DNA from: an uncultured Gammaproteobacteria bacterium
Lineage (GTDB): Bacteria > Patescibacteriota > Patescibacteriia > UBA11705 > DATKZF01
DNA length: 64,000 nt
Assembly (NCBI GenBank): GCA_964411255.1
Contig: CAYPKD010000003.1
Coordinates: 92,439 to 156,438 of the forward strand
Reading direction: 5' to 3'
Position numbers and translations under genes: made by a program. Below are positions 5,481 through 50,088 of this stretch, one piece after another. Within the stretch, counting starts at the first letter, position 1. Each line of letters begins with the position of its first letter. The notes under the pieces are model-generated. The model ran no database searches. It saw only the letters and a program-made list of their open reading frames with translations, and was not told the DNA's origin.

Positions 5481-5509
5481 TATGGCCTGCCAGCCGAAGC
5501 TCCGAAGGC
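5481..5509 (-). repeat. Conserved GC-rich tRNA 3'-trailer hairpin element (copy 1)
   Basis: ggcctgccagccgaagctccgaagg lies immediately 3' of the tRNA-Leu CCA end. Near-identical copies occur at 5776-5810, 14879-14929 and 50035-50088 (plus strand). Confidence 0.6.
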
Positions 5510-5596
5510 TGGTGCCGGCGGACGGAGTCGAACCGTCACGGATTTTCATCCACAGGATTTTAAGTCCTGCGTGTCTACCAATTCCACCACGCCGGC
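5510..5596 (-). tRNA. tRNA-Leu(UAA), type II with long variable arm, CCA encoded
   Basis: Hand fold: acceptor GCCGGCG/CGCCGGC, anticodon stem CAGGA/TCCTG with loop CTTAAAA, T-arm GACGG-TTCGACT-CCGTC, discriminator A, CCA. Confidence 0.85.
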
Positions 5597-5609
5597 CTAC
5601 GCTTTCGCC

Positions 5610-5725
5610 TTACTCAAGCTTCGGCCGACAGGCCGGCCAAAGCGTAAACTTTACTCAAGCTTCGGCCGACAGGCCGGCCAAAGCGTAAACTTTACTCAAG
5701 CTTCGGCCGACAGGCCGGCTAAAGC
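5610..5725. repeat. Tandem 41-bp repeat, about 2.8 copies, between tRNA-Leu and tRNA-Gly
   Basis: The unit ttactcaagcttcggccgacaggccggccaaagcgtaaact is repeated head-to-tail and contains a cggcc-gaca-ggccg hairpin. A related motif lies in the tRNA-Gly 5' leader (5886-5945). Confidence 0.8.
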
Positions 5726-5775
5726 TGATTTTCTAAACTCCAACCCTCGATTCTCCGACGTACTGACAGGTGATT

Positions 5776-5810
5776 TGGCCTGCCAGCCGAAGCTCCGAAG
5801 GAGCGAAGGC
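5776..5810 (-). repeat. Conserved GC-rich tRNA 3'-trailer hairpin element (copy 2)
   Basis: tggcctgccagccgaagctccgaaggagcgaagg lies directly 3' of tRNA-Gly. Confidence 0.6.
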
Positions 5811-5885
5811 TGGAGCGGGTAACGGGAATCGAACCCGTATCTCTGCCATGGCAAGGCAATATAATAGCCATTATACTATACCCGC
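5811..5885 (-). tRNA. tRNA-Gly(GCC)
   Basis: Hand fold: acceptor GCGGGTA/TACCCGC, anticodon loop TTGCCAT, T-arm ACGGG-TTCGATT-CCCGT, discriminator T, CCA. Confidence 0.85.
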
Positions 5886-6088
5886 CTACGCTTTTCTTTG
5901 AAAAGCTTCGGCGGGCAGGCCCGCAACCGAAAAGCTTTTCAATATGAAAAGAGTAAGAATTATGTATTATTTATTTTATACTGATCTACCAATCTAATAA
6001 TAACATCAAATATTATAGCAAATCCACATAAAATGTCAATGATTAGTTGATTTATTAAATAAAAAACAGCCCTTTTTAAGTGCTGTTG

Positions 6089-6601
6089 TTAAGTGGATTT
6101 TGCATCTTTTAAACTAACATTATAATCAACAACTACAATTTTATTATCTATCAGTCTGATATAAAAGGCCATATGCGGAACTTTGGGAAATTCCAGCTTT
6201 AATATCTGTTTAACTTCCTCCACTGAAGGATCATCTTCAAACTCGAGCCATGAACCGTTTTCACTCGTATTTACAATATAGTCAGTATTGTGAAATGCTT
6301 TTTCCTCTTTTCTAATAACTGATCCTAATTGTTTAATTAGGAAATTTTTTTTACCAATTTGATTAATTTGGTTTTTTAAAAAAAATGCAAACACAACACA
6401 ACCGAGAGTACATAAGAAAAGCAAAGTAAAGAGCGGCCATACAACTTTAATAAATTTATCAGGAATTTCTTTAAAAGGATAAAGCAGAGTTATCATGAAG
6501 GTAAGGCAAATAATCAGAGTAAAGAAAAGACAATGTATGATATAATTTCTGAATAATTTGTCAATTTTATTTTTTTCAGAGCTGCTCATTTTTTCCTCCA
6601 T
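6089..6601 (-). CDS. Hypothetical membrane protein (2 TM helices)
   Basis: 170-aa ORF with an N-terminal hydrophobic region. Confidence 0.45.
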   Translation of the reverse strand: MEEKMSSSEKNKIDKLFRNYIIHCLFFTLIICLTFMITLLYPFKEIPDKFIKVVWPLFTLLFLCTLGCVVFAFFLKNQINQIGKKNFLIKQLGSVIRKEEKAFHNTDYIVNTSENGSWLEFEDDPSVEEVKQILKLEFPKVPHMAFYIRLIDNKIVVVDYNVSLKDAKST

Positions 6602-6654
6602 TGGTTAAACATTAAATAATAGTGTATTTATAATATTTTGTCAATTAAAGCAAA

Positions 6655-6686
6655 AAACCTTTTGAAAATATTCAAAAGGTTTTTTT
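6655..6686. terminator. Bidirectional intrinsic terminator
   Basis: Perfect hairpin aaaaccttttgaa-aatatt-caaaaggtttt flanked by A/T tracts, directly 3' of the second tRNA-Leu. Confidence 0.6.
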
Positions 6687-6772
6687 TGGTGCTGGGAGAG
6701 GGACTCGAACCCTCACGGCATTGAGCCAGGGGATTTTAAGTCCCCTGTGTCTACCAATTCCACCATCCCAGC
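6687..6772 (-). tRNA. tRNA-Leu(UAA), second divergent copy, type II, CCA encoded
   Basis: Hand fold: acceptor GCTGGGA/TCCCAGC, anticodon stem GGGGA/TCCCC with loop CTTAAAA, T-arm GAGGG-TTCGAGT-CCCTC. Confidence 0.85.
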
Positions 6773-6995
6773 ATTTTTATTTGATTTAGTATTATATCAT
6801 TTATATAAAAAATTGTCAATGTTTAATAATGTAATAAAAATTGCAATTTCCTATGAAAATAGCTTAAATTAGCAAAACCTTTGACAAAATTAATAAAAGA
6901 TGCTAGAATAATATGATACAAATCAGTCCGGAAATACTGGATTTGATCGTTTTTTTACAATAAAAACTATATATCGATAATGAAAGGAGTTAAAA

Positions 6996-8396
6996 ATGAG
7001 TGAGATGGACGTTAGGAAGAATCCTTCGGAGTTTGAAATTAAGATTTTGGGAAATAAGAAAAAAGTCGGTGCTGCTTGTTATGCTTACATTAAGTATCTG
7101 ACAGATGGTACACGCCAAATTATATTAATTGATTTTGGATCTGATCCATCGCGTTTTCTTGATATGGAAAATGGCAATGGTAATATTGACACCAGTGTTT
7201 TGCCTGATCTTGATTGGGTAAAAGAAAACCAAAAAGATATTATTGCTATTTTTTTCACCCATGGTCACATGGATCATATTGGTGGAGTGAGATTTTTGCC
7301 TCAAGAATTGCTTGAAAGAGTTGCTATGTTTGCGACGCCATATACAGCTACATTGTTGCAAGATGGAGATAGGGGTTTTCGTGGAGAAAGAAAGCAGCTG
7401 GTAAATATTACAACTTTTGACGCGCAGCTTCTTGAACCGATTGAAATCGGGGTTTTCAATGTAACTCCATTTCCTGTTCCTCACAGCGTTCCAGATGCTT
7501 GCGGCTATATGATTGAAACCAGAGATCCGATGAAAAAAGTGGTTCATATCACTGATTTCAAATTCAATGGTTTGGATCATACTGATAAGATGCGCCTGAC
7601 CAGAACTTTGGGCGCAATTGGCCGTCATATTATTGATACACTTGTTATTGAAGCTTTGAATGCTCGCTTTGAAGGATATACTCCTCAGGAGAATTTGACT
7701 TTTGAAGCAATTTTCAACCTGGTTGAAACCATTCCTGATGATAAGCGAGTGATTATTACCCATTTTGCTTCAAATGTGTATCGAATGCGGGCAATACTTG
7801 ATATTGCCAGATATACAGGTAAAAAATTTGCTCTGGACGGAACTGCGATGAAAAAACACTTCAAACGTGCTAAAGAGCATGAGTTCATTGATCGCGGCTG
7901 GCAGCAAACATTTCCAAATAATGCAAGAATGATCTTAGTTACAGGTTCTCAGGGAGAACCACAGGCGGTTTTGGCAAAAGCTGTAGATAACTTGATTGAT
8001 TTGGAAATTGATGAGAATGATGTGGTTATTTTCTCATCAAATGTTATTCCTGGGAATGAAGATGATTTTGTGGATTTGGTTCTGGATCTAGAAGATCTGG
8101 GTGCTACAATCTATGTGGATGCAAATTCTGATTTTGAAAATTTTGATGATTTGGATATTCACTTAGTTGAAAATCTTCATGTTTCCGGACATGGCAACTG
8201 GGCAGACAAACAGCGGGCAATTGAATTGATTCGTCCTCAGAAAAATATCCTAATGGTTCATGGTGAAGAATCAGATGAAGATGATTTTCGTAGCCGAATT
8301 GATGAATTGAAAAAAATTGAGGCTGAAAGTAAAACTGGTTCAATTTGGAGTCATCTAAAGGTGATCTCCAGTGAGATCGGATTAGTTTTGGTCTAA
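6996..8396 (+). CDS. RNase J-like metallo-beta-lactamase fold RNA hydrolase
   Basis: 466 aa with the HGHMDHIGG (HxHxDH) MBL motif. The N-terminal region resembles RNase J, but it is shorter than canonical RNase J. SD gaaaggag precedes the ATG. Confidence 0.6.
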   Translation: MSEMDVRKNPSEFEIKILGNKKKVGAACYAYIKYLTDGTRQIILIDFGSDPSRFLDMENGNGNIDTSVLPDLDWVKENQKDIIAIFFTHGHMDHIGGVRFLPQELLERVAMFATPYTATLLQDGDRGFRGERKQLVNITTFDAQLLEPIEIGVFNVTPFPVPHSVPDACGYMIETRDPMKKVVHITDFKFNGLDHTDKMRLTRTLGAIGRHIIDTLVIEALNARFEGYTPQENLTFEAIFNLVETIPDDKRVIITHFASNVYRMRAILDIARYTGKKFALDGTAMKKHFKRAKEHEFIDRGWQQTFPNNARMILVTGSQGEPQAVLAKAVDNLIDLEIDENDVVIFSSNVIPGNEDDFVDLVLDLEDLGATIYVDANSDFENFDDLDIHLVENLHVSGHGNWADKQRAIELIRPQKNILMVHGEESDEDDFRSRIDELKKIEAESKTGSIWSHLKVISSEIGLVLV

Positions 8397-8477
8397 TATA
8401 CTATAAAGACATTGTTAACAAGCAGTGTCTTTTTTAATTTTGGCATTTTTAAAGATTTAAGCTAAAATACATGTACT

Positions 8478-9494
8478 ATGTCAGATAATGAATCAAGAAT
8501 TTCAAATCCAAAAAGTCAGGCCAAGGAAAAAGAGCTTGAGTTATGTTTGCGACCCCAAATAATGGGTGAATACATTGGCCAGGATAAAGTTAAGGAAAAC
8601 ATCATGATTTCAATTGAGGCAGCAAAAAAGAGACAGGATCCGCTTGAACATGTATTGCTTTTTGGCCCTCCAGGACTTGGTAAAACCACTTTAGCTCATA
8701 TTATTGCCAATGAAATGGGCACAAATTTACGAGTAACCTCTGGTCCGGCAATAGAAAAGAGTGGAGATCTGGCAGCGATTTTAACAAACTTACAACCTGG
8801 GGATATACTGTTTATAGATGAGATTCATAGGCTTAACCGCAATATTGAAGAAGTTTTGTATCCTGCTATGGAAGATTTTTGTTTGGATATTGTCATTGGC
8901 AAAGGACCGTCAGCCAGAACTGTTCGATTAGATTTACCAAAATTTACATTAATTGGAGCTACAACAAAGATCAGCAAGCTTTCCTCCCCTCTCAGGGATC
9001 GTTTTGGTAATGTATATCGATTGGATTTTTATTCTGACAATGATATTGAAAAGATAATAATGAGAACTTCAAAAGTTCTTAATTGTAATTTTATAGATAA
9101 TTCTTCAATAGAAATTGCACAAAGAGCAAGAAAGACTCCCAGAGTGGCAAACCGGTTGTTAAAAAGAGTAAGAGATTTTGCTGAAGTGAAAAACGACGGT
9201 TTGATAAATACAAACATAACTAAACAGGCTTTAAAAATGCTTGAAATAGACGATTTAGGTTTGGATGAAATAGACAGAAAGATACTTTTGACCATTATTG
9301 AAAAATTTTCAGGCGGACCTGTAGGTTTAAATACTATATCAGCAGCTACCTCTGAAGAAATGGATGCAATTGAAGATGTATTTGAACCATTTCTCTTGCA
9401 GCTTGGCTTTATAAATCGCACACCGCGTGGTAGAATAGTAACAAGCAAGGCGTATGAACATTTGAATCTGCCGTTTAATAAGCCTGCATCCTGA
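8478..9494 (+). CDS. ruvB: Holliday junction branch migration ATPase RuvB
   Basis: 338 aa with [22 protein letters not shown] Walker A and the RuvB arrangement. Confidence 0.9.
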
Positions 9495-9553
9495 AATCCA
9501 AAATCTGAACTCTGAGGCCTTATCGTTTAACTTTTTTATATTTAACTTTCATT

Positions 9554-9811
9554 ATGTCAGTCGAAATTCCATTATATAGTTTTTTAATAATATATCTGGT
9601 GTATATTGGAATTTTTTTGATTTTTAGTTTGTTTAATATTTATCACCTGGTCAAGCACGGTTTTTCCAGTGTTTTTGTTTATGTCGTAATAATTTTGTAC
9701 ATAGTTATCGCTGCAGTCGTAGTTTTTATAACATATTATTATCTGCAAGATGTAGAGTGGAGCCAGGTTTTATCATTGTTATCTGAAAAATATAAAAGTT
9801 TGGGATTTTAA
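9554..9811 (+). CDS. Small hydrophobic membrane protein
   Basis: 85 aa with two predicted TM helices. Confidence 0.4.
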   Translation: MSVEIPLYSFLIIYLVYIGIFLIFSLFNIYHLVKHGFSSVFVYVVIILYIVIAAVVVFITYYYLQDVEWSQVLSLLSEKYKSLGF

Positions 9812-9814
9812 CAT

Positions 9815-10438
9815 ATGTATACCATGACCCGTTTTCCTAATCAGCAGGAAGATGAAAATATATTAATTTTTTTACGCAGACATTGGATTGTTGTTTTCAA
9901 GTTTTTTATTTTATTTGTATTATTAGTTGTTTTTGTTTTAGTCCTGGATGTGGCAACTTATTATTTTACAAATATTTGGGAAGGCCAAATTAGTTATTCT
10001 CTTATTATTTTAGGAAACAGCGCGTATTTTCTGTTTGTTATGCTGTTTACTTTTGCCAACTTTGTAGATTATTATTTAGATGTCTGGATCGTGACGAATA
10101 AAAGAATTCTAAATATTGAGCAAAAAGGACTTTTTTCCAGGGTGGTCTCTGAAAAAGAAATAGTTCGAATGCAGGACGTCACTTCAGAGGTGCATGGATT
10201 TTTAGCCACATTTTTTAATTATGGAAATATATATATTCAAACTGCAGGAACAAAAGGAAGATTTATTTTTAAACAAGTGCCAGATGCTGCCAGTGTTGCT
10301 CAGGAAATTAGTAATTTGGTTACAAAGACACGAGAATCGCAACCCCAGCAAAAACCTGTATACACAGAGGAAAAAGAATCAGTGGTTTTAGAAAAAGAAA
10401 AAAAGCCCAGCGTTGAACAAATTGGGAAAGAAGAATAA
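9815..10438 (+). CDS. Membrane protein with bacterial PH-like (bPH_2/DUF304-like) domain
   Basis: 207 aa. ENILIFLRRHWIVVFKF plus two TM helices followed by a soluble domain, which is YdbS/YdbT-like architecture. Confidence 0.4.
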   Translation: MYTMTRFPNQQEDENILIFLRRHWIVVFKFFILFVLLVVFVLVLDVATYYFTNIWEGQISYSLIILGNSAYFLFVMLFTFANFVDYYLDVWIVTNKRILNIEQKGLFSRVVSEKEIVRMQDVTSEVHGFLATFFNYGNIYIQTAGTKGRFIFKQVPDAASVAQEISNLVTKTRESQPQQKPVYTEEKESVVLEKEKKPSVEQIGKEE

Positions 10439-10464
10439 ATTTATTTTTTATATTCAATGATAAT

Positions 10465-10489
10465 AAAAAACCGCTACGCGCGGTTTTTT
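10465..10489. terminator. Bidirectional intrinsic terminator between convergent genes
   Basis: aaaaaaccgc-tacgc-gcggtttttt. Confidence 0.6.
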
Positions 10490-10586
10490 GGATTTATTAA
10501 ATTTAATTGTAATTGTTATTTTGATGAAAAATTCTGGTGAAATCAAGGTAAATATGACTTGGAATTTTTAACTCCTTGTTTTGATA

Positions 10587-12260: not shown

Positions 12261-12398
12261 ATTTGTTTTACTATTACTATTGTATCATTTATTTTTAATT
12301 TTGTCAATAGTTTTTATGCTAAATTTAGCTAAAAAAACAATTTATTCAATTGACTTTTCCGAATAATATTGTAAAATTAATTTTTTTAAAATGAAAAT

Positions 12399-12415
12399 TC
12401 CCGCTCGTGGGCGGA
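12399..12415 (-). terminator. Intrinsic terminator (family A) after the 12421 gene
   Basis: tcccgctcgtgggcgga hairpin preceded by an A tract on the plus strand, which is a T tract for the minus-strand transcript. Confidence 0.5.
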
Positions 12416-12420
12416 AATGT

Positions 12421-12750
12421 TTAACTTGCTATTCGAACCAATGCCACTGCCAGGAAGTAGAATATTATAATTGCTATAATAATGCCTATAATCTGAATTA
12501 TCCTATATATTTTTCTTTTTTCTAAAAGTCTATTTTTAACATCTGTTCTTATTTCATAATATGGATGGTAAAAATCACGAAAAGCCACTGTTCTATGATT
12601 ACATACTGGACAAATAAAAGTAATATCTATATTGGAAGTTCCTTTTTGTTTAGTTGTCTTTAAATTATTTTCATAAATTCTAATTACAGATAAGCAAAAA
12701 TGGCATTGTGAATACATACTCCAAGGTCCTGGGGTGCTTATGACCTCCAT
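12421..12750 (-). CDS. Small zinc-ribbon protein with C-terminal TM helix
   Basis: 109 aa. CHFC...CPVC cysteine pairs and a hydrophobic IIGIIIAIIIFYFLAVALV tail. Confidence 0.45.
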   Translation of the reverse strand: MEVISTPGPWSMYSQCHFCLSVIRIYENNLKTTKQKGTSNIDITFICPVCNHRTVAFRDFYHPYYEIRTDVKNRLLEKRKIYRIIQIIGIIIAIIIFYFLAVALVRIAS

Positions 12751-12828
12751 CAGTACCTCCGTTTGAATAATATAAAGAACAACCTATTTTTAGGTTAACA
12801 AAAAGAGGATTTTTGTCAAATAAAAAAA

Positions 12829-12846
12829 TTCCACGCGTGGGTGGAA
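12829..12846 (-). terminator. Intrinsic terminator (family A)
   Basis: ttccacgcgtgggtggaa hairpin plus A tract (T tract on minus strand), right after the stop of the 12853 gene. Confidence 0.5.
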
Positions 12847-12852
12847 TAACAA

Positions 12853-13176: not shown

Positions 13177-13249
13177 TGTTACCTCCCTTCCTAGTTGATT
13201 TAGGCGATATTTAATATTAACTGACTATAAATCTTTTGTCAAAAAAAAT

Positions 13250-13264
13250 TCCGCAGGATGCGGA
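13250..13264 (-). terminator. Intrinsic terminator (family A)
   Basis: tccgcaggatgcgga hairpin plus a run of 8 A (8 T on the minus strand), directly after the GIY-YIG gene stop. Confidence 0.55.
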
Positions 13265-13284
13265 TTTTATTAATTGAGAAATGG

Positions 13285-13533
13285 TTAATGACTAGATTTA
13301 ACCAGATTTTCTTTTTCAATTTTCGTTAAACGTTTTATTTGCGCTTCTCTTTTCTGTGCTTCTGATCGGCTGTTAAATTTTTCAAAATAAACAATTTTTA
13401 CAGGTCTTCTATATTTTGTATATTTAGCTCCTTCGCCTTTATTATGCTTTTCTTCTCTAGCTTTAATATTTATACAAGATCCTGTGTATAACGAATTGTC
13501 ATTACATCGGGCAATGTATGTGAAGTATTTCAT
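13285..13533 (-). CDS. GIY-YIG nuclease superfamily protein (UPF0213/YhbQ-like)
   Basis: 82 aa. YIARCNDNSLYTGSCINIKAREEKHNKGEGAKYTKYRRPVKIVYFEKFNSRSEAQKRE matches the small GIY-YIG domain pattern. Confidence 0.75.
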   Translation of the reverse strand: MKYFTYIARCNDNSLYTGSCINIKAREEKHNKGEGAKYTKYRRPVKIVYFEKFNSRSEAQKREAQIKRLTKIEKENLVKSSH

Positions 13534-13614
13534 TTTAATATATAAAAGATTTAATTAATTTGTATCACTATTTATGGCTGTGCTATTCGAAGTTCGCCAA
13601 AGGCGAACGAAGAA

Positions 13615-13690
13615 TGGTGGACCTGACTGGACTTGAACCAGCGACCTCCTCCATGCCATGGAGGCGCTCTACCAACTAAGCTACAGGCCC
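13615..13690 (-). tRNA. tRNA-Ala(GGC) with G3:U70 identity pair
   Basis: Hand fold: GGGCCTG acceptor with G3-T70, anticodon loop ATGGCAT, T-arm GTCGC-TGGTTCAAGTCC region, discriminator A, CCA. Confidence 0.8.
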
Positions 13691-14684: not shown

Positions 14685-14761
14685 ATTTTTTAAAATTAAA
14701 TGTAATAAAGGTCTGCCATCCGAAGCCCGACCTTGAATTTGTCGAGAGGGAGAGCGAAGGA

Positions 14762-14836
14762 TGGTGGGTCGTGAAGGACTCGAACCTTCAACCAATGGCT
14801 TAAGAGGCCACTGCTCTACCATTGAGCTAACGACCC
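14762..14836 (-). tRNA. tRNA-Lys(CUU)
   Basis: Hand fold: GGGTCGT acceptor, anticodon stem GTGGC/GCCAT with loop CTCTTAA, T-arm GAAGG-TTCGAGT-CCTTC, discriminator A, CCA. Confidence 0.85.
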
Positions 14837-14878: not shown

Positions 14879-14929
14879 TGGCCTGCCATTTGAAGCTCCG
14901 AATATTGTGAGGAGCGAAGAATGGCGCAG
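14879..14929 (-). repeat. Conserved tRNA 3'-trailer element (copy 3)
   Basis: tggcctgccatttgaagctccgaatattgtgaggagcgaagaatggcgcag shares gagcgaag and ccgaagctccgaa modules with the other copies. Confidence 0.55.
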
Positions 14930-14958
14930 TCATGAACCATTCACTTTATTTGGATTCA

Positions 14959-15035
14959 TGGCGCAGCCGGAGGGACTCGAACCCCCAACCCTCTGGTCCG
15001 AAGCCAGATGCTCTATCCAATTGAGCTACGGCTGC
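14959..15035 (-). tRNA. tRNA-Arg(UCG)
   Basis: Hand fold: GCAGCCG acceptor, anticodon stem TCTGG/CCAGA with loop CTTCGGA, T-arm GGGGG-TTCGAGT-CCCTC, discriminator G, CCA. Confidence 0.85.
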
Positions 15036-15068: not shown

Positions 15069-15230
15069 CCCAACCCTCTGGTTCGAAGCCAGATGTCCCG
15101 ATTTTTAGAGCCGCTAATCAGCTTAATAATCGAGGATTCTCGAAATTGTAACAAAATCATAAATTTTGACAATTTCGGGACTCTATCCAATTGAGCCCTA
15201 CCCTGAGCGAAGTCGAAGGGTGCGGCTGCA
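15069..15230 (-). pseudogene. Fragmented tRNA-Arg(UCG)-like copy with two hairpin insertions and truncated T-arm/acceptor
   Basis: The reverse strand reads GCAGCCG, then a 26-nt insert, then GCTCAATTGGATAGAG, then an insert of roughly 85 nt bounded by TCCCGA...TCGGGA, then CATCTGGCTTCGAACCAGAGGGTTGGG, then an A tract. It matches the 5' two-thirds of the adjacent intact tRNA-Arg but lacks its 3' part. Confidence 0.5.
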
Positions 15231-15340: not shown

Positions 15341-16033
15341 TTAGCTCCACTTTTTCTTTTTTATAGCCTTCTCAGCGGCTATTTCCTGAGCTTCCTGCTT
15401 ACTTAATCCTGATCCTTTAGTTACCAATTCTTTTCCCAAATAAACACCTACTTCAAATATTTTAGCATGGTCTGGACCGCTTTCTTTTGATACTTTGTAT
15501 GTTGGTGTAATACCCACTTTTTCCTGGGCAGCTTCCTGGAATTTACTTTTTGGATCCAGATATAGTTGATGTTTCAGAATATATGGCAATTCTGGCAAAA
15601 GTTTTTTTTCTAAAAATTCTTTTGAGGCCTGCCATCCCTGATCCAAATATATTGAGCCAATTAATGATTCAAAGGCATTAGCCAAAATGTACTGGCGCGC
15701 TTTTCCAATATCCTTTGATTCACCTTTGCTTAAATATAAATAAGTTTCAAGGCCAATTCGCTGCGCCAGTTTAGCTAACATTTTACTATTGACTAAACTT
15801 GCCCGCCAATTAGTTAATTCGCCTTCTGGGTTTTCATAATTAAGATAAAGATGTTCAGTCACAACTAATTCAAGGACTGCATCTCCCAAAAATTCCAGCC
15901 TTTCATTATGTCCCAGATGGAAATCAGGATGTTCATTTAAGTAAGAACGATGGACTAGTGCTTGTTCCAGTAAGTCCATGTTTTCAAATTTAACCCCTAT
16001 TTTCTTTTCTAATTTTGAAAAATCTTTTTTCAT
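15341..16033 (-). CDS. rnc: Ribonuclease III
   Basis: 230 aa with the ERLEFLGDAVLELVVTEHLY RNase III signature and a C-terminal dsRBD. Confidence 0.9.
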   Translation of the reverse strand: MKKDFSKLEKKIGVKFENMDLLEQALVHRSYLNEHPDFHLGHNERLEFLGDAVLELVVTEHLYLNYENPEGELTNWRASLVNSKMLAKLAQRIGLETYLYLSKGESKDIGKARQYILANAFESLIGSIYLDQGWQASKEFLEKKLLPELPYILKHQLYLDPKSKFQEAAQEKVGITPTYKVSKESGPDHAKIFEVGVYLGKELVTKGSGLSKQEAQEIAAEKAIKKKKWS

Positions 16034-16040
16034 ACTGACA

Positions 16041-16080
16041 AAAACAGATCAACAGATCTGCAACAGATGAAACAGATAAT
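16041..16080 (-). promoter_or_regulatory. Conserved 40-nt ATCTGTT-heptamer element in the rnc 5' region (copy A)
   Basis: aaaaacagatcaacagatctgcaacagatgaaacagataat ends 7 nt upstream of the rnc ATG. A roughly 90% identical copy lies upstream of tig (60054-60096). Confidence 0.55.
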
Positions 16081-16121
16081 GCATTATCTGGAATATCTGT
16101 AGTAGGTCAATAGATCCGTAG

Positions 16122-16616
16122 TTACTTTTTCTTAGAGTCTTCGTTTTTTTTAGTTTCTTCCGCTTTTACTTTAATTTGTTCTTTATCTTCTGTTTTTATT
16201 ACTTCACCCATGTCTTTATAAATTGAACCTAAAACACCGTTAATAAATTTTCCAGATGATTCGCCACCAAAAGTTTTACCAATTTCTATGGCTTCATTAA
16301 TTGCTACTTTAGCAGGAACATCCTTGTCAAAAACTAATTCATATATGCCGATTCTAAGAATGTTTCGATCAATAGTCGTTATTTGTTCGATTGGCCATTC
16401 TGGGGCATATTTTACAATATGCTCATCAATTTTTTTTATTTTTTTGATTACGCCGTCAATAATTTTTTCAGTAAAGGATTTATCTTTAACCGTTGGAGCA
16501 AATTCTTTAAAATTGTAATCAATAAATTTAGGCAAATCTTTTGTGTTTTTGCCAAGAAAATCCCACTGAAATAATGTTTGCATTGCAATGGTCCTGGCAA
16601 GGTGTCTATTAGCCAT
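16122..16616 (-). CDS. nusB: Transcription antitermination factor NusB
   Basis: 164 aa with the [20 protein letters not shown] NusB N-terminus. Confidence 0.85.
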
Positions 16617-42102: not shown

Positions 42103-42297
42103 TTGTCCCTCCCTTTTTTCAAAGGACAAAACCTGTTTTTAGGCACTTTGCCTAAATCAGCTTATTTTAACAAAAATTATAATTTTGTCAAATAAAAAAT
42201 AATGCGGTTTTTTAGCGTTATTTGCTTAATTGGTATTTTACAGTATAATAAAATCTGGTACATTTAAAATAACTCATAATAAATGAAAGGGGGCTTA

Positions 42298-43971: not shown

Positions 43972-44011
43972 AAAAATTGAAAAAGGACACATATTACACA
44001 TGGTCCTTTTA

Positions 44012-45241
44012 TTATTGTAATTTTTTTTTCTCCAAATATTTAGTAAAAGATGTTATTCCGTATGGATCTTTGGCTTGAACATCTTTATGAAAGATATAAG
44101 CCCTTGCTTGGCATTCTCGAAGTCCATTATTTCTGAATTGGTTAAAAATTTTATGGTTTTGCCATTTTTGTAAAAAATGATCATCAAAGGCTGGTAATTC
44201 CCTGTCTTGATAATAGCCTGCAGCAACCAAAGATGGACAAGTTATCATTTTTCCATTCACATCTATCACCAGCCCTGATCTAGTGGCTCGGCATTCATTT
44301 CTTGGCGGAAGCCCAAGAAGTTTTGAAACGATTGCAGCATTGGAAATTCCAATTTTTTCACCTTTATTTTTTCTTAAATTAAATAAGGTGATAATTAAAT
44401 CAAAAAAGCTTTGCGGTTCTGGTATCAGATTTCTATGTTCAGGCTGAAAGGGTTTGAATAAATTGAAATTGCATGGGATTCCAAGTTGTCTGCAATAATC
44501 AATTATTTGTTGATAAAACAAGATATTAATTGAATTGATAGTAAAAGTAGTTTCCACAGCTAAGCCCTTGCTTGTCAATATCCGTAGAGTTTTGTCTACT
44601 TTTCTAAATACTCCTTTACCTCTGATTTTATCATGAATTTTTTTTGTTCCATCAAGGCTAACTAAAAAAGTTAATCTTTTGATTTTGGCTAATTGTTCGA
44701 GCATCTCATTATCAATTAAAGTTAGATTGGTAACAAGATTAATCGCCATTTGATTTTGCTGGCAAGCTTTAATTATTTTCAACAAGCCTTTATGCCTTAG
44801 GGGCTCCCCGCCTATTAGGCTGACTTCAAATATGCCATTTTTAGCCAAAAGATTTACGGTATCAATTGCTTTTTGTGTGGGAACAAATATTTCTTGGTGT
44901 TCAGCCTGAAAACAATGTTTACATCGGAGATTGCACGAAGTTGTAATTTCAAATTCTACGCCCAAAGGCATGTCAAGTTGCCTTTGTTCTAGGACATTAA
45001 AGCCAGACGGCTTTATTTCTTCCTGAATTTGTTGTAAAAATTCAATTACGTCATTGAGAGCCTGAAAAAGTGAAATGTGAAATTTTTTAGATATAGACTG
45101 AGCAATAGAGTCAATATCTTTTTCATGGTTAAAAAATAAATCTAAAATATTTTTTCCAATTTTATTAATTTCAATCACTCGTCTGGTATCTAAAAAGTAG
45201 GCTATATATTGTTCTTTTTCTTGCCTAAATCGCACTAACAT
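44012..45241 (-). CDS. Radical SAM / SPASM(twitch)-domain enzyme with N-terminal PqqD-like RRE region; putative RiPP maturase
   Basis: CNLRCKHC (CxxxCxxC) at about residue 100. The C-terminal Cys cluster (NECRAT.., ITCPSL, RECQAR) is consistent with SPASM/twitch. The N-terminal 90 aa (IEINKIGKNILDLFFNHEKDIDSIAQSISKKFHISLFQALNDVIEFL) resembles PqqD/RRE. SD AAAGGAG precedes the ATG. Confidence 0.8.
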   Translation of the reverse strand: MLVRFRQEKEQYIAYFLDTRRVIEINKIGKNILDLFFNHEKDIDSIAQSISKKFHISLFQALNDVIEFLQQIQEEIKPSGFNVLEQRQLDMPLGVEFEITTSCNLRCKHCFQAEHQEIFVPTQKAIDTVNLLAKNGIFEVSLIGGEPLRHKGLLKIIKACQQNQMAINLVTNLTLIDNEMLEQLAKIKRLTFLVSLDGTKKIHDKIRGKGVFRKVDKTLRILTSKGLAVETTFTINSINILFYQQIIDYCRQLGIPCNFNLFKPFQPEHRNLIPEPQSFFDLIITLFNLRKNKGEKIGISNAAIVSKLLGLPPRNECRATRSGLVIDVNGKMITCPSLVAAGYYQDRELPAFDDHFLQKWQNHKIFNQFRNNGLRECQARAYIFHKDVQAKDPYGITSFTKYLEKKKLQ

Positions 45242-45266
45242 TGGCCGCTCCTTTTTGGGTTATAAA

Positions 45267-45290
45267 AGAGGTAATGATGAAATTACCTCT
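45267..45290 (-). terminator. Intergenic hairpin between precursor-like gene and radical SAM gene (attenuator/partial terminator)
   Basis: agaggtaat-gatgaa-attacctct followed by ttttat on the transcribed strand. Confidence 0.45.
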
Positions 45291-45302
45291 GCCAGTCTGT
45301 TG

Positions 45303-45515
45303 TCATGGCAATTTGATAACACATGACGCCCCCTTTTTTTTGAGATTGAGGGTTGTTTCGAGTCTGATCAGGGCAGACGCGAATGCTTTCCCAGCGTGTT
45401 CTCCTGATTGTAATCCCCCAGGAGAACCACCGCAGCTTGTTAGGCAGCAACCTGATTCTACGGGTTCTGGAAAGTAGCCGCGTCTAAGTACCTTTGGTTT
45501 TTGGTACTTCCTCAT
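45303..45515 (-). CDS. Candidate RiPP precursor peptide (70 aa; Cys/Gly/Pro/Ser-rich core)
   Basis: Strong SD AAGGAGGA lies 7 nt before the ATG. Sequence: MRKYQKPKVLRRGYFPEPVESGCCLTSCGGSPGGLQSGEHAGKAFASALIRLETTLNLKKKGASCVIKLP. GC-rich codons. Stop is 60 nt upstream of the maturase start. Confidence 0.5.
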   Translation of the reverse strand: MRKYQKPKVLRRGYFPEPVESGCCLTSCGGSPGGLQSGEHAGKAFASALIRLETTLNLKKKGASCVIKLP

Positions 45516-45643
45516 TGTGAGGTCCTCCTTTTTGTGAAGGTTCTAGAAATGGGGTAAAATTTTTACCAAGGACTGCTTTAAGCTTATGAAATATATTTAT
45601 TTTTGTCAAATAAAAAAATGCGGTTTTTTCGCATTATTTTTTA

Positions 45644-46462
45644 TTATTTAATATTATTAATAAGTTGTTTAACTTTATTTTCATCAATTCTCTGGTTATA
45701 AGGCTTTATATTTATTTCTTTTTTATCTTTTACGCCTTTTTTAAGTGAAGTACTTACAATTGCTCCGTTTGCGTATTGAAAAAATTCTTGAACATTATTC
45801 TTGTTTAATCCACTGCCAATTAAAATTGGAAAATCATTAACAGAATGTTTAATCATTTGAAGTTCTTGCATATCCGGAGCATTGCCAGTCCAGCTGCCAG
45901 TGATTATTAAAGCATCAGATCCATTTTCTATTGCCAATTGAGCTGACGTTTTTAAATCATGGATTGATAAAAGTTCAGCATGTTTAACTTGAATATCTGT
46001 AAATAAAGCTATATCTTCAGCATTGATTGATTTTTGATAATTAATAATTTGTCTAGCATTTCCATGTATAATTCCATAATCAGTTTTGACTGAATCAATG
46101 AAAACAGGAATTCTAATAAATTTCAGATTTAATATTTTCGCAATTGATAAAGCAGTTTTATAATCATTCCATAAAACACTAATACCAATTGGCAGCTTGG
46201 TTGCTTTTTTAATTTGTTCACCCAAATATGTCATTGAAGCTATTTGTGCTGGATCAATAAATTCTTTATGTGGAAAATCATAATTATTTTCAAAAATAAT
46301 AGCCTTTGCTCCTCCATTTTCAAAGGCTATTTGATCTTTTAAAGCATTTTGTATGGCAATTTCAAATCCTGGAAAATTTTCATAACCTAAAAGAGGTGGA
46401 AAATGAATAGCACCGATTATTACATTTTTATTTTTTTCAAATATTTTTTGAAATTTATACAT
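45644..46462 (-). CDS. BtpA/SgcQ-family TIM-barrel protein
   Basis: 272 aa. GAIHFPPLLGY and overall similarity to BtpA family proteins. Confidence 0.6.
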   Translation of the reverse strand: MYKFQKIFEKNKNVIIGAIHFPPLLGYENFPGFEIAIQNALKDQIAFENGGAKAIIFENNYDFPHKEFIDPAQIASMTYLGEQIKKATKLPIGISVLWNDYKTALSIAKILNLKFIRIPVFIDSVKTDYGIIHGNARQIINYQKSINAEDIALFTDIQVKHAELLSIHDLKTSAQLAIENGSDALIITGSWTGNAPDMQELQMIKHSVNDFPILIGSGLNKNNVQEFFQYANGAIVSTSLKKGVKDKKEINIKPYNQRIDENKVKQLINNIK

Positions 46463-46661
46463 AATAAAAAAATAACGCTGCTTAGCGCTATTTTCTTAAT
46501 CTTCGAGTATGTTTAGCTAATTGCTTGCCTTTTTTAGTTTTTTTCTTTGCATGCTTAGTTCTGGCTCTTGCTGCGCTATTGTGTCCCATATGATTGAAAT
46601 TGTTATTTGTAATACACTTTATTCTATCGTATTTTTTAAATCTGTGCAAGTGCAAATTGTT

Positions 46662-46931
46662 TTATTGGGACAAAGCATTTAAATCGTCAACCTCAATATT
46701 TTGAATATCAGTTTTTAATTTTTGTAGATCTTTTTCTGTTATATCCATTTCAGTATCAGATGTGGCTATTTTTGAATTAGTTGGCTGCGTCTGTTCAATG
46801 TTTGGCTGGCCTAAATCAATTTTAATACCATCCAGTTGTTGTGTTGAAGAAGATTGTTCAGTTTTTTTGCCACAAGCAGATAAAGATAATGCAAAAATTA
46901 AAATTAAGACTATAGAAAGTATTTTTTTCAT
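46662..46931 (-). CDS. Small lipoprotein
   Basis: Signal peptide with LSACG lipobox. Confidence 0.45.
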   Translation of the reverse strand: MKKILSIVLILIFALSLSACGKKTEQSSSTQQLDGIKIDLGQPNIEQTQPTNSKIATSDTEMDITEKDLQKLKTDIQNIEVDDLNALSQ

Positions 46932-46932
46932 A

Positions 46933-47703
46933 TTATTTTGTTATTAAATTAAATGCATGTTCTAATTGCTGCTGTGCGTTTAGCAGGTTTGTTTTTGCCT
47001 GACGCAGATAATTGTTTCCTTCACTGAATTTAATTAAGGGCGTACCAGGTAATTTTACTTGTTTATATGAACTTTCTGCAAAATCAACCTTATCCTGCGC
47101 TGTTTGCAATTCTGTTTTGGCTACATTTAATTTATTTATTATTTCATCACTGTCTGGAAGTTTTTCAGCAGCCGCCCGAATCTTTTGTTCATACGTTTTT
47201 GCTGTTTCAATTAAATCATTTCCAATACTCACCCACATTGATCCAGAATTTCTGGCAACATCAGTTAATAGCTCCAAATAAGACTTTATCATTTTTAGAA
47301 AAGTTGTTCCTAAATTCAGTTGCGAATCAATATTTTTAACATCTGTTCGTAAAGTATCTATTTTTGCTAGATTTGTTTTTACATCAGTTTCAATATTGGT
47401 TTGAATGGTATCTGGCACATTTGGATTTTCCTGAGCTTCAAGTTTTTTCCAGCCAAGCCAGGCCTCAGCTTCATCCAGCGCAGCTTCTAATACTTCTTTT
47501 CCTGTGTCAATCACTGCTTGCTCATTTTCATCAGATTTGTCAGTTGCATAATCAAGCTTTGCTTCCTTATGATCAGCCTCAGCTGCCATTCGAATTTTTA
47601 TAGCATTAAGCCAATCTTGTTTAAGCTGATTTGAAGTTGCAGCTTGTGAAATTCCAGGTAATAACAACATCGTAATTAATAATACTAAAAGTATTTTTTT
47701 CAT
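46933..47703 (-). CDS. Secreted coiled-coil protein of unknown function
   Basis: Signal peptide followed by helical repeats. Confidence 0.45.
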   Translation of the reverse strand: MKKILLVLLITMLLLPGISQAATSNQLKQDWLNAIKIRMAAEADHKEAKLDYATDKSDENEQAVIDTGKEVLEAALDEAEAWLGWKKLEAQENPNVPDTIQTNIETDVKTNLAKIDTLRTDVKNIDSQLNLGTTFLKMIKSYLELLTDVARNSGSMWVSIGNDLIETAKTYEQKIRAAAEKLPDSDEIINKLNVAKTELQTAQDKVDFAESSYKQVKLPGTPLIKFSEGNNYLRQAKTNLLNAQQQLEHAFNLITK

Positions 47704-47831
47704 ATAAAGACGTTATGAATAGTTGAATTAATATTAACAGAGTATTGTTATTTTTTCAATAAAATTGACAAAGAATGTAAATTTTAGTAAGAATAATAGA
47801 ACCCTGGTTTTTTACAATCAAGGAGGTGAAA

Positions 47832-48917
47832 ATGCCATATTATACAGATGAATATTTAGCTTTTGATCATGATCGAGCGAAGGGACCTGGCCTTATATTG
47901 TTTATTTTGTTTTTGTTTGCTTTTGGTATTATGCCAGTGGCTGCATATAATTGGGCAGTCAGGCTTTATTTGTTTACCGGGTTGATTACTTTTATTTTGC
48001 GGCTGAGAAGAAATAGAGCTGAGTTTTTTAAGGAATTAGGCTGTGCGTTTAAATCACATACTACAAATTTTTGGTCTACATTAATATTATGGCCAATTGA
48101 TGTGATTGCCCTTGCCTTAGGCTGTAAATGTTCATTTATAAGTCGATATAGCATACATGAGTTTGATAGGATTTTTAGGAATAATAGAGGCATCCATCGT
48201 GATACGGTCAGAGAACTCGTTGAGCAACAAATTGATATTGGAGAAAAAGAAATAGAACAATTATTTGAAGATATGGTCTACAAGGCCAGAAAAACAACTG
48301 CTGTAGTTGGTTCTGGCGCAATGATTACCTTGGCAAATTATGCTTTTGCAAAGGGAACACCACCAAGAGCAAATGAAGAAGTTGAACTTCAGATGATTAT
48401 TTGGGGAGACTTTATGCATGATCGTCAGTTATGGCTTAAATTAAAGATATGGTATTTTGAGTTTTGGCAGCAAAATCGCTGGCCAGCTGGAAAAGCAGCT
48501 CCAGCTTCATATATTGGAGGTGGATTTAAAGTTCCATTATTCTCAAAATCTGCCATTGTAGTTAATTGTGGCCCACAGGGTTCAGATGAAGGCGTAGATA
48601 GTTTTGCCTTTTTTGTAAATTTGATCCTTGGAGACAAAGATTGGCAAATCGTTCTGGCTAATAGGGCACAAAAAAACTTTTTCAATAAAAAAGTACCATG
48701 GGTAATTATGCATATTCAGTCAATAAAAACTCCATTACTTGAATGGTTGAGACTAAAGGTTGATCAGGCATATTTACTGAATAAGTTAACTAGACTGAGA
48801 GTTGGGCCTGAATTTTCATTTCCAACTGACAGCCTAAAATATTTCAGACTTTGGCCAAGCTATGATTTTATTCAAGAAATCCCGGATGTTAGATTGCAAT
48901 TTCAATATTCATTTTAA
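47832..48917 (+). CDS. Hypothetical membrane protein
   Basis: SD AGGAGGTG precedes the ATG at 47832. Two N-terminal TM helices. Confidence 0.5.
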   Translation: MPYYTDEYLAFDHDRAKGPGLILFILFLFAFGIMPVAAYNWAVRLYLFTGLITFILRLRRNRAEFFKELGCAFKSHTTNFWSTLILWPIDVIALALGCKCSFISRYSIHEFDRIFRNNRGIHRDTVRELVEQQIDIGEKEIEQLFEDMVYKARKTTAVVGSGAMITLANYAFAKGTPPRANEEVELQMIIWGDFMHDRQLWLKLKIWYFEFWQQNRWPAGKAAPASYIGGGFKVPLFSKSAIVVNCGPQGSDEGVDSFAFFVNLILGDKDWQIVLANRAQKNFFNKKVPWVIMHIQSIKTPLLEWLRLKVDQAYLLNKLTRLRVGPEFSFPTDSLKYFRLWPSYDFIQEIPDVRLQFQYSF

Positions 48918-48992
48918 GCAGCAGATAATACTCGCTGCTTTTTTGTAAAAAAAACACCCGCGTAAAAGCGGGATGTTTTTATAAGTTGACTT

Positions 48993-49193
48993 TTAGGCTT
49001 TTTGTACATTGATAGCACGTGGGCCTTTTTCAGACTCTTCAACATCAAAGGTGACAGCATCTCCTTCATTTAAATCATTGTATTCAACACCCTGAAGCGC
49101 TGAAGAATGAAAGAAAATGTCTTTGTCAGGAGATTCATCTGAAGCGATAAATCCAAAACCTTTGTCTGTAAGTCTTTTGATTGATCCGTTCAT
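48993..49193 (-). CDS. cspA: Cold-shock protein (CspA family)
   Basis: MNGSIKRLTDKGFGFIASDE...DIFFHSS RNP1/RNP2 motifs. Start at the internal Met typical for Csp (66 aa). Confidence 0.85.
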   Translation of the reverse strand: MNGSIKRLTDKGFGFIASDESPDKDIFFHSSALQGVEYNDLNEGDAVTFDVEESEKGPRAINVQKA

Positions 49194-49358
49194 AAAAAAA
49201 TAAGATGAATTAATCTGCAAAATTTAGCCTCTTGCAGAAATTCGACTTATTTCTACTAACGGGGCAAACTTTTTGCAGTTTTATAATAGCATAAAATAAA
49301 AATAATGCAAATAGCAAAGCAATAAACAAAAACACCTCCATATTTGGAGATGTATTTG

Positions 49359-49434
49359 TGGGGCGAGTAGAGGGAATCGAACCCTCATCACCGGTACCAC
49401 AAACCGATGCTCTAACCGTTGAGCTATACCCGCC
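49359..49434 (-). tRNA. tRNA-His(GUG) with genomically encoded G-1
   Basis: Hand fold: G-1 + GCGGGTA acceptor, anticodon loop TTGTGGT, T-arm GAGGG-TTCGATT-CCCTC, discriminator C pairing with G-1, CCA. Confidence 0.8.
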
Positions 49435-49580
49435 ATGGTGTAGGATTATGGTGCAAATTGAAAATGTCAAAAACAGAGTAAGTCTAATAAATCGAGGAAA
49501 TATCTATACATTATTCGTATTCTAAAGAACCCTCTTTTATTATTGGCTGAAGGCCATGAGCCTGTTAAGCAGGGATTGGA

Positions 49581-49657
49581 TGGCGTCCGCGGATGGACTC
49601 GAACCATCAACCTACAGCTTAGAAGGCTGTTGCTCTATCCGGTTGAGCTACGCGGAC
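49581..49657 (-). tRNA. tRNA-Arg(UCU)
   Basis: Hand fold: GTCCGCG acceptor, anticodon stem ACAGC/GCTGT with loop CTTCTAA, T-arm GATGG-TTCGAGT-CCATC, discriminator G, CCA. Confidence 0.8.
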
Positions 49658-49895
49658 CGAAAACTAAAATCACCTCACTATTATATCAAATTTCCAGAAT
49701 TGAGTCAATAAAGCAAGGTATATGGATATAATGTGTAAATTCCAAGTAAAATGTTTGATATTTGAATTAAAATATGTTATATTTGAGTATATTTTAGGTA
49801 AAATAGATAAAAATTGGATGAAAATTGCCTTTTGCGACACATATCCATGTATAAAATTAGGCAAATATTTGAAAAAATAGTATATAATGACGGAG

Positions 49896-49915
49896 AATGT
49901 TTCACGTGAAACATT
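49896..49915. promoter_or_regulatory. Perfect 20-bp palindrome AATGTTTCACGTGAAACATT (CACGTG core), copy 1, just downstream of a TATAAT box
   Basis: TATAAT at 49883-49888, with the palindrome starting 8 nt later. About 40 nt upstream of tRNA-Arg(CCU). Confidence 0.5.
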
Positions 49916-49957
49916 TTGGATGCGAATTTCAAATTTCAATTTTTTAATTCCCAAAAT

Positions 49958-50034
49958 GCACCCGTAGCTCAGTTGGATAGAGCGAGACACTCCTAACGTC
50001 TAGGTCGCAGGTTCGATCCCTGCCGGGTGCGCCA
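49958..50034 (+). tRNA. tRNA-Arg(CCU)
   Basis: Hand fold: GCACCCG acceptor, anticodon stem AGACA/CGTCT (A31-C39 mismatch) with loop CTCCTAA, T-arm GCAGG-TTCGATC-CCTGC, discriminator G, CCA. Confidence 0.75.
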
Positions 50035-50088
50035 TCCTTCGCTCTCGCCTCGCGAAGCTCGACTTGAGCTTCGGATGGCGCAGTCACT
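50035..50088 (+). repeat. Conserved tRNA 3'-trailer element (copy 4, plus strand)
   Basis: tccttcgctctcgcctcgcgaagctcgacttgagcttcggatggcgcag shares TTCGCTC and GAGCTTCGGATGGC modules with the minus-strand copies. Confidence 0.55.

Follow-up and report, generated by a model that had tools for sequence, protein, structure and literature searches.

The stretch of DNA analysed here (the window; 64,000 nt) is part of a bacterial chromosome near the replication origin and encodes DnaA, an RNase J-like protein, PNPase and trigger factor. Nine transfer RNA (tRNA) genes were found in it by ARAGORN. Six of the nine (Leu-UAA at 5510, Gly, Ala, Lys, Arg-UCG and Arg-CCU) are tagged with a short GC-rich hairpin unit, which is absent from tRNA-His, tRNA-Arg(UCU) and the second tRNA-Leu(UAA). 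One gene for a small stand-alone GIY-YIG nuclease is situated behind tRNA-Ala, and solo units are present at the five other tagged tRNAs.

Structure and location of the hairpin units

The unit found in tRNA trailers is an imperfect palindrome built in the order CCA-NYC / TTC / G-variable stem and loop-C / T(T/A)C / GRN-TGG / C(A/G)(A/G)GCC(A), the last of these being a conserved tail. Its foot is a helix of 6 bp in which CCA-NYC, the tRNA's own CCA included, is paired with GRN-TGG. Above the foot, the TTC and TWC triplets face each other as an invariant 3x3 internal loop (GAA/GWA on the other strand). The upper stem is GC-clamped and different in every copy in the window, yet always paired. 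Folding as single-stranded DNA (ssDNA) gives this architecture of foot, internal loop and upper stem, with z-scores of -0.05 to -3.8 per unit. The foot covers the last 3-7 bp of the tRNA gene, that is, the CCA at the 3' end and positions -1 to +4 or +5 at the 5' end, where the unit is inverted. The units have a GC content of 0.51-0.72, whereas that of the window is about 0.33. Their last bases are CAGGCCA(T)AAA, after which come separate AT-rich or classical terminator hairpins. A role of the unit itself as an intrinsic terminator was ruled out, as it has no direct T run and distinct terminators are located further downstream.

Motif searches confined the unit to tRNA flanks. The pattern GCTTCGGMTGGCAGGCC, with up to three mismatches, gave eight matches in the window against 0.03 expected, all of them at tRNA flanks, and CCANYCTTCG gave six against 0.37 expected, every one at a CCA end. 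A covariance model, R1, was built from 45 sequences, all of other organisms. At E <= 0.13 it detected eight sites in the window, each of them at a tRNA end: the six trailers were matched on the strand of the tRNA and the two leaders on its complement. The best of the remaining matches had E = 1.3. No Rfam family covers the elements at gathering thresholds in the window and 35 loci, or at E <= 1 in 5400-6000. The Rfam matches above threshold were tRNA, transfer-messenger RNA (tmRNA), ribosomal RNA and unrelated families only.

Five of the six trailer units start inside the encoded CCA; the sixth, at tRNA-Arg(UCG), is offset by 27 nt. The highest score was obtained for unit H1 after tRNA-Gly(GCC) (5811-5885), which occupies 5776-5813 on the minus strand (R1 61.5 bits, E 4e-12; ssDNA fold z = -2.2) and reads CCAGCC-TTC-GCTCC-TTC-GGAGC-TTC-GGCTGG-CAGGCCA. 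At tRNA-Leu(UAA) (5510-5596), H1 lies at 5483-5512 on the minus strand (R1 match 5484-5512, 39.5 bits, E 3.2e-7; predicted fold) and has a collapsed upper stem, CCAGCC-TTC-GGAGC-TTC-GGCTGG-CAGGCCA. The unit after tRNA-Ala(GGC) (13615-13690), at 13575-13617 on the minus strand, scored lowest with R1 (14.3 bits, E 0.13); it matches the pattern, folds as ssDNA with z = -3.4 and reads CCATTC-TTC-GTTCGCC-TTT-GGCGAAC-TTC-GAATAG-CACAGCCA. Behind tRNA-Lys(CUU) (14762-14836) the unit (14710-14764, minus strand; R1 25.9 bits, E 3.5e-4) has a long upper stem and the tail CAGACC. The offset unit downstream of tRNA-Arg(UCG) (14959-15035), at 14879-14931 on the minus strand (R1 match 14880-14924, 38.5 bits, E 5e-7), is joined to a duplicated 10-nt fragment of the acceptor 3' end, GACTGCGCCA, 27 nt past the intact tRNA. 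On the plus strand, the unit after tRNA-Arg(CCU) (49958-50034) spans 50028-50086 (R1 match 50032-50079, 29.5 bits, E 5.6e-5; ssDNA fold z = -3.8) and also registers as an inverted repeat. Its foot is lengthened to 10 bp (TGCGCCATCC / GGATGGCGCA), pairing with the acceptor 3' strand of the tRNA.

The two leader elements follow the scheme GGCCTG-foot-GAAGC...GCG(T/A)A-foot' on the tRNA strand. Since R1 matches both on the strand opposite to the tRNA, they are the trailer unit in inverted orientation. The element in the tRNA-Leu(UAA) leader (5592-5638, plus strand; R1 match 5592-5634, 24.5 bits, E 7e-4) was also found by a hairpin scan. It reads GGCCTGTC-GGCC-GAAGC...GCGTA-GGCCG on the tRNA strand, where the 3' arm of its foot coincides with positions -1 to +4 of the tRNA. 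In the tRNA-Gly leader (5881-5939, plus strand; R1 match 5881-5921, 31.9 bits, E 1.6e-5) the foot overlaps positions -1 to +5, and a partial partner copy gives rise to a long palindrome centred on GGGCCTGCCC. tRNA-Gly and tRNA-Leu are thus each bracketed by inverted copies of the unit pointing into the gene.

The spacer between these two genes consists of one H1, a 60-nt spacer and then inverse copies, which include a 41-nt tandem array of partial leader units (5610-5725; 2.8 copies by Tandem Repeats Finder). The tRNA-Gly unit and the leader copy at 5699-5716, 60 nt apart, form an 18-nt inverted repeat. When the window was compared by blastn with same-species contigs (L001-L004), two versus three copies in the 41-nt array was the sole difference between otherwise identical strains.

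These results bear on a preliminary description of the same DNA. The GC-rich element that it had placed after the CCA of tRNA-Leu(5510), tRNA-Gly, tRNA-Arg(UCG) and tRNA-Arg(CCU) was located at all four, the tRNA-Arg(UCG) copy lying 27 nt downstream, and its view of the elements as GC-rich islands is borne out by their composition. The 'shorter variants' reported after tRNA-Lys and tRNA-Ala are in fact complete units that differ in the upper stem. The leader motifs were confirmed, though as inverted copies of the unit and not as a separate related element.

The trailer of tRNA-Arg(UCU) (49530-49583, minus strand), which was missed by R1, reads CCATCC-AAT-CCCTGCTTAACAGG-CTC-ATGG-CCTTCAGCCAAT. 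Its topology is that of the unit and its tail is similar, but the TTC loops are absent; it may be a decayed copy.

Conservation in other genomes and association with GIY-YIG genes

Species-representative genomes were scanned with a 21-base two-part pattern. At least 119 loci were found, against a chance expectation of roughly 8 calculated for uniform base composition. Among the matches listed, no fewer than seven phyla are represented, with loci in Mesorhizobium and other Alphaproteobacteria, Acidobacteriota, Nitrospirota, Verrucomicrobiota, Patescibacteria, Bacillota, Gammaproteobacteria and further groups. Of the 119 listed matches, 85 are at intact tRNA or tmRNA genes, and 80 abut the 3' end of an ARAGORN tRNA exactly, with 19 tRNA identities represented. 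Five listed matches are at tmRNA genes by ARAGORN, and L006 is a sixth, recognised as tmRNA by Rfam only. Two of the five were placed by Rfam inside a permuted alphaproteobacterial tmRNA gene, right after the CCA of the acceptor piece. In the permuted tmRNA of L050, the module described below appears as an insertion of ~125 nt relative to the Rfam alpha_tmRNA consensus. One listed match follows tRNA-Ala in a 16S-23S spacer. Several of the listed matches classed as non-tRNA sit on orphan 10-16-nt tRNA 3' fragments, and about a dozen resemble chance or unrelated sites. In tRNA clusters at three loci from Acidobacteriota (L034, L083, L097), the 3' arm of an H3-type hairpin is the 5' end of the next tRNA-Thr; this arrangement (CGGCC-GAAGC...GCGAA-GGCCG) matches the tRNA-Leu and tRNA-Gly leaders of the window. 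Literature searches by motif strings and keywords found no paper with the motif or with an association of GIY-YIG genes and tRNA trailers.

Full copies have the order tRNA-CCA, H1, CAGG, H2, H3, 10-25 nt and the ATG of an open reading frame (ORF) of ~80 aa. H1 recurs as an inverse copy, H2, whose 3' arm, GCGAAG-GNN-TG, exactly complements the 5' arm of H1, with a variable 10-100 nt between them, and the two arms can form a perfect long-range helix of 10-13 bp beginning at the CCA. H3 has the form CCCNCC-GAAGCC..GGCGAAG-GNGGG and often includes a GGAGG, 6-10 nt before the ATG.

The link between hairpins and gene was obtained from two sides. From the motif side, blastp clustering of the ORFs that follow the unit yielded a single dominant family, which is found at 20 loci across phyla and proved to be a GIY-YIG domain; the domain scan was confined to this cluster, the only large cross-phylum group. 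Starting from the protein, a metagenome scan with the GIY-YIG alignment gave 80 loci, and the 66 with at least 200 nt upstream were kept. At 45 of these 66, a same-strand tRNA or tmRNA ends within 450 nt before the start codon, mostly at 90-260 nt, and nearly all of the 45 carry the H1/H2/H3 module. Many hairpin loci have no nuclease gene nearby.

The nearest solved relatives of the GIY-YIG family are SLX1 nucleases (E 3.7e-5). The family comprises at least 7,936 clusters (90% identity) at E <= 1e-5 among 8,000 candidates scored, and a search of NCBIfam assigned the protein to no specific family. Nucleases 65-85% identical to one another sit behind tRNA-Val, Tyr, Leu, Met or Ser, and two nucleases with a common tRNA and upstream synteny are just 70% identical. 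The module is duplicated in tandem in several loci, and copies of tRNA or tmRNA 3' ends recur beside modules. At L079, an H3-like hairpin follows the GIY-YIG gene.

The pairing of the hairpin is strongly conserved. At the variable foot position N, a Watson-Crick pair is present in 73 of 90 distinct copies. The protein-selected loci provided 51 distinct H1 copies with 20 different feet; their foot pairs comprise 299 Watson-Crick, no G-T, one A-C and six other pairs, and the upper stems at these loci have 192 Watson-Crick versus 2 non-Watson-Crick pairs. The mismatches are too few for the G-T versus A-C asymmetry to choose the folding strand, and the near-absence of wobble pairs is itself informative. 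In the 45-sequence alignment the proposed structure pairs in 95.8% of cells, double-sided changes number 67 as against 17.5 in shuffles, and the covariation score of 0.311 (0.070 in shuffles) was reached by none of 500 shuffles, while slid controls collapsed. The hairpin is under selection; foot and stem vary, and conservation across phyla is seen in the unpaired nucleotides.

The nuclease gene of the window (13285-13533, minus strand; 82 aa plus stop; Pfam PF01541, E 3.5e-17) is the only such GIY-YIG gene there and starts 41 nt past the tRNA-Ala unit. A promoter scan detected no consensus promoter between tRNA-Ala and the gene. It has its own terminator at 13250-13264, and nothing but this plain terminator is found downstream. 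The catalytic-type residues Y, Y-x-G, R, H and E are conserved in the alignment of the family (A1). The protein belongs to a YhbQ-like subfamily; five out of six homologues in other Patescibacteria closely follow a tRNA, tmRNA or tRNA 3' fragment. The hairpin upstream of these homologues (L205-L208) is analogous and of other sequence, consisting of CCA followed by TTCGACTCG...CTCGCTCATGG...GAGGCGAATG and then GTCCTGA....

Two further arrangements were seen at loci with a GIY-YIG gene. At L205 (1767-1776) and L207 (1749-1758), both from Patescibacteria, the GIY-YIG gene call overlaps the next tRNA by 10 nt, and the nuclease gene fills the whole spacer between the two tRNAs; the gene appears to end at the conserved U8-A9-G10 (TAG) of the tRNA. 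At L204 (about 1312-1500), the tmRNA 3' end (CCCGCCATCTCCACCA) together with ~30 nt of near-identical downstream sequence is duplicated ~150 nt further on, directly before the GIY-YIG start codon.

Other features around the tRNA genes

The window sequence recurs in several metagenome assemblies, and one of the proteins encoded in it has its closest relatives in Patescibacteria. dnaN, rnpA and yidD are present in this region on a same-species contig. The RNase P protein subunit is encoded by the ORF at 1151-1519 (PF00825 on the same-species contig). The RNase III gene rnc (15341-16033) and nusB, which together occupy 15341-16616 on the minus strand, lie directly upstream of the Arg/Lys tRNA cluster.

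Two sigma-70 promoters that match the consensus at 12 of 12 positions and carry a TG extension were found on the minus strand, at 6012-6039 upstream of the tRNA-Gly/Leu operon and at 6791-6819 upstream of the second tRNA-Leu. This second tRNA-Leu gene is followed by a textbook terminator (6652-6685) and carries no hairpin unit.

Directly upstream of the intact tRNA-Arg(UCG) gene there is a broken copy (15069-15229, minus strand, with 14922-14958). It keeps the acceptor 5' strand, the D arm and the anticodon arm; the T arm is gone. The broken copy is interrupted by a 20-nt hairpin (CCCTTCGACTTCGCTCAGGG) and by an 86-nt insert carrying a sigma-70-like promoter that matches at 10 of 12 positions (15172-15145). 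The first insert (15201-15220) seems to be a collapsed copy of the hairpin family that begins with TTCGACTCG after the CCA. The 3' end of the broken copy, GACTGCGCCA, turns up again 27 nt past the intact tRNA-Arg(UCG). The broken tRNA-Arg resembles an old gene that was split by a segment containing a new copy. A split tRNA or an archaeal intron was set aside as an account of this pseudo-tRNA, as the genome is bacterial (dnaA, sigma-70 promoters, trigger factor).

A match to HPnc0260, a Helicobacter antisense RNA, was returned by Rfam at 13524-13653 on the plus strand (60.5 bits, gathering score 59). This match, which overlaps both tRNA-Ala and the attached unit and lies on the other strand, is probably spurious.

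Interpretation and comparison with known systems

The units are probably a DNA-level family of hairpin repeats on tRNA and tmRNA gene ends, tied to a small stand-alone GIY-YIG protein (Slx1/Ssn-like) that, by analogy, would act as a hairpin-specific nuclease. This reading is favoured because the unit occurs in both orientations at the two gene ends, the pairing is almost purely Watson-Crick, the unpaired bases are conserved across phyla while the stems vary, and the link to the nuclease holds from the motif side as well as the protein side. The presence of same-family nucleases at different tRNAs, the tandem duplications, the copy-number polymorphism between strains and the ~125-nt tmRNA insert are signs, at the level of sequence, of relocation or insertion.

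The preliminary description had left a choice between processing or termination structures for tRNA transcripts and a small repeat family that targets tRNA ends. The latter is the better of the two, and it extends to many phyla, to tmRNA genes and to a linked GIY-YIG gene. Processing or termination is not the best primary explanation because the unit is inverted at the leaders, where the RNA motif would become GAA/GWA, because pairing is almost exclusively Watson-Crick with no enrichment of G-U on the transcribed strand, because separate terminator-like hairpins come after the units, because three tRNAs in the window do without a unit, and because of the ~125-nt insertion in a permuted tmRNA gene.

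By analogy with the Ssn NTS/SRM repeats and with REP/RAYT, the nuclease would bind the unit in single-stranded DNA and nick beside the hairpin. The module could then be copied to further tRNA ends by repair or strand transfer, with the outermost pairs of the foot (TGG against CCA) playing the part of the guide/target pairing in IS200/IS605. The position behind a strong tRNA promoter would supply expression, and the H1:H2 helix together with H3 may keep tRNA maturation intact and limit translation. A secondary role in RNA, for example to admit RNase III or to mask the ribosome-binding site, may have been acquired later by co-option. It is conceivable, and we put this forward tentatively, that the module and its minimal GIY-YIG gene constitute an autonomous, previously unrecognised selfish element, which would home to tRNA and tmRNA ends via pairing of an ssDNA hairpin foot with CCA and leave behind solo hairpins, possibly co-opted for processing of tRNA operon transcripts.

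The units might instead be structures of the host's RNA, serving as processing or insulating signals of precursor tRNAs (RNase III entry, CCA protection), with the GIY-YIG gene a mere frequent passenger of tRNA operons. The trailer unit invariably has the orientation of the tRNA and starts within the CCA, a perfect H1:H2 helix of 10-13 bp can start from that CCA, and H3 often sequesters GGAGG 6-10 nt before the ATG. In addition, the unit is found in segments that are removed from RNA (the intervening segment of permuted tmRNA, the 16S-23S spacer), and the RNase III gene (15341-16033) adjoins the Arg/Lys tRNA cluster. Nevertheless, we regard this explanation as rather unlikely. The inverted leader units would present GAA/GWA instead of UUC/UWC, and one RNA-binding factor could not see both; almost no G-U occurs among hundreds of pairs, and it is the unpaired nucleotides that are conserved across phyla while foot and stem are variable. 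One third of the tRNAs in the window have no unit, units are duplicated in tandem and sit on orphan tRNA 3' fragments, and no Rfam family matches them. We give considerably less credence to the idea that the GIY-YIG protein is an RNA nuclease for the maturation of tRNA and tmRNA precursors, which would recognise the hairpin and cleave at the CCA. Here the foot marking the mature end exactly, the single small nuclease gene among many hairpin-tagged tRNAs in the window, and the fusion of a GIY-YIG domain to a TrmH-like tRNA methyltransferase, from which an older survey suggested a role in RNA metabolism (PMC1564403), are set against the inactivity on RNA of the only characterised relatives (Ssn). 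Inverted leader copies and Watson-Crick pairing point to DNA, many hairpin loci lack a nearby nuclease gene, and RNase P protein subunit, RNase J, PNPase and RNase III are already encoded in the window.

Explanations based on classical mobile elements appear still less probable. Short GC-rich palindromes with conserved unpaired tags, arranged in head-to-head dimers and tandem clusters as in bacterial interspersed mosaic elements (BIME), repetitive extragenic palindromes (REP) and CGTC repeats (PMC3733652), would be in line with miniatures of a transposon of the miniature inverted-repeat transposable element or REP type, mobilised in trans by a Y1 enzyme (RAYT or IS200/IS605) or another transposase. 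We consider this very improbable, as the ORFs beside the tRNA clusters yielded no transposase or integrase domain, the recurrent neighbour across phyla is the GIY-YIG gene, and REPs are scattered between genes whereas the window units are solely at tRNA ends. That the units are leftover att sites of islands or prophages driven by an integrase is the least credible of all. Such elements do integrate classically at tRNA and tmRNA 3' ends, and several copies on orphan 10-16-nt tRNA 3' fragments are attR-like; the sequence common to the units, however, is external to the tRNA and, unlike att cores, is conserved between phyla and between isoacceptors, the units are 30-55-nt hairpins with covarying stems, and no integrase is found nearby in the window.

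Several observations weigh against a DNA-level repeat served by its own nuclease. The nuclease activity, cleavage and transposition ascribed to the family are inferred by analogy. The nuclease subfamily of the window goes with a different hairpin elsewhere, so that the cognate enzyme of the window units may be another. No empty-versus-filled orthologous site, which would define the boundaries of the element and any target duplication, was found in the strain comparison. With the SGSG-type protein as query, tblastn gave no match in 72,556 plasmids or 50,697 phages, an odd result if the element is actively spreading. A function at the RNA level would likewise produce the strict coupling between unit orientation and tRNA. 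The SRM consensus recognised with Ssn, HGTCWYN(0-2)YYVSBRHN(0-5)WNVSBRGN(0-2)RNCYNB, is not enriched in 252 kb of GIY-YIG loci (3 matches, 2.55 in shuffles), and the hairpins lie upstream of the nuclease gene as a three-hairpin module and not on both sides as in NTS-ssnA-NTS. In the window, the SRM consensus has a single match, away from any element.

If the DNA-level reading is true, a dedicated system of repeat and nuclease occupies tRNA and tmRNA gene ends in many phyla while being invisible to standard annotation, in which the hairpins are currently unannotated and the gene is labelled just 'GIY-YIG nuclease family protein'. It would provide a biological context for a very large orphan protein family, extend the ssDNA-specific Ssn nucleases to a new target class and offer an explanation for orphan tRNA 3' fragments, tandem spacers and permuted-tmRNA insertions. 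It also directs attention to nucleases whose ssDNA specificities are new and of interest for biotechnology. The unit is a sequence able to mislead the prediction of tRNA ends and att sites. Patescibacteria have few RNases, and any co-opted processing role therefore bears on their tRNA maturation.

Among known systems, T4 SegB resembles the present arrangement in that a GIY-YIG gene is lodged among tRNA genes and is able to promote inheritance of its neighbourhood (PMC2330249). The Seg proteins differ in being larger, having DNA-binding domains, cutting double-stranded DNA and lacking hairpin repeats (PMC2330249); also unlike SegB, the SGSG-type nuclease has no phage match by tblastn in 50,697 phages.

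Like REP/BIME with RAYT, the units are short palindromes that have conserved unpaired tags and occur as inverted dimers and in clusters (PMC2817692; PMC3733652), and one dedicated enzyme gene is flanked by its own repeats. CGTC-tagged REPs without a transposase were described by Di Nocera et al. (PMC3733652), and H3 often starts with TGTC, a variant tag reported for CGTC repeats (PMC3733652). The enzyme here is a GIY-YIG nuclease and not an HUH/Y1 transposase, and a conserved internal 3x3 mismatch and confinement to tRNA ends set the units apart: in place of the general intergenic dispersal of REPs, all eight model matches in the window and 85 of the 119 listed genome matches are at tRNA ends or at intact tRNA/tmRNA genes, respectively. 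No Y1 (IS200/IS605-type) transposase domain was present in the 24 window ORFs scanned. In IS200/IS605 elements, subterminal imperfect hairpins are recognised in ssDNA, and insertion takes place beside a short target that pairs with a guide at the hairpin foot. Pairing of the foot TGG with CCA is a possible counterpart of this guide and target. Unlike IS200/IS605, the module has no TnpA or TnpB and no defined left and right ends, and a likeness in excision and insertion would be one of analogy.

The closest parallel is with Ssn (cd10448), stand-alone GIY-YIG nucleases of ~94 aa that cut ssDNA beside the NTS/SRM hairpin repeats flanking their own genes (PMC11893778) and do not act on RNA (Chenal et al. 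2025, PMC11893778). That study drew a likeness to REP/RAYT and IS200/IS605 and contains no mention of tRNA (PMC11893778). In both systems a single-domain GIY-YIG protein of ~80-100 aa has its gene tied to short GC-rich hairpins with conserved unpaired flanks, repeats outnumber genes, and the spread is broad, including Alphaproteobacteria such as Rickettsiales and Sphingomonadales. Unlike those of Ssn, the repeats described here are located at the ends of tRNA and tmRNA genes, into which their foot extends, have a different sequence with an invariant TTC/TWC mismatch in the stem, and occur in copy numbers bounded by the number of tRNA genes, not in hundreds. A nuclease with its own hairpin repeats is thus known in kind; what is new is the unexpected and very consistent target, the tRNA end.

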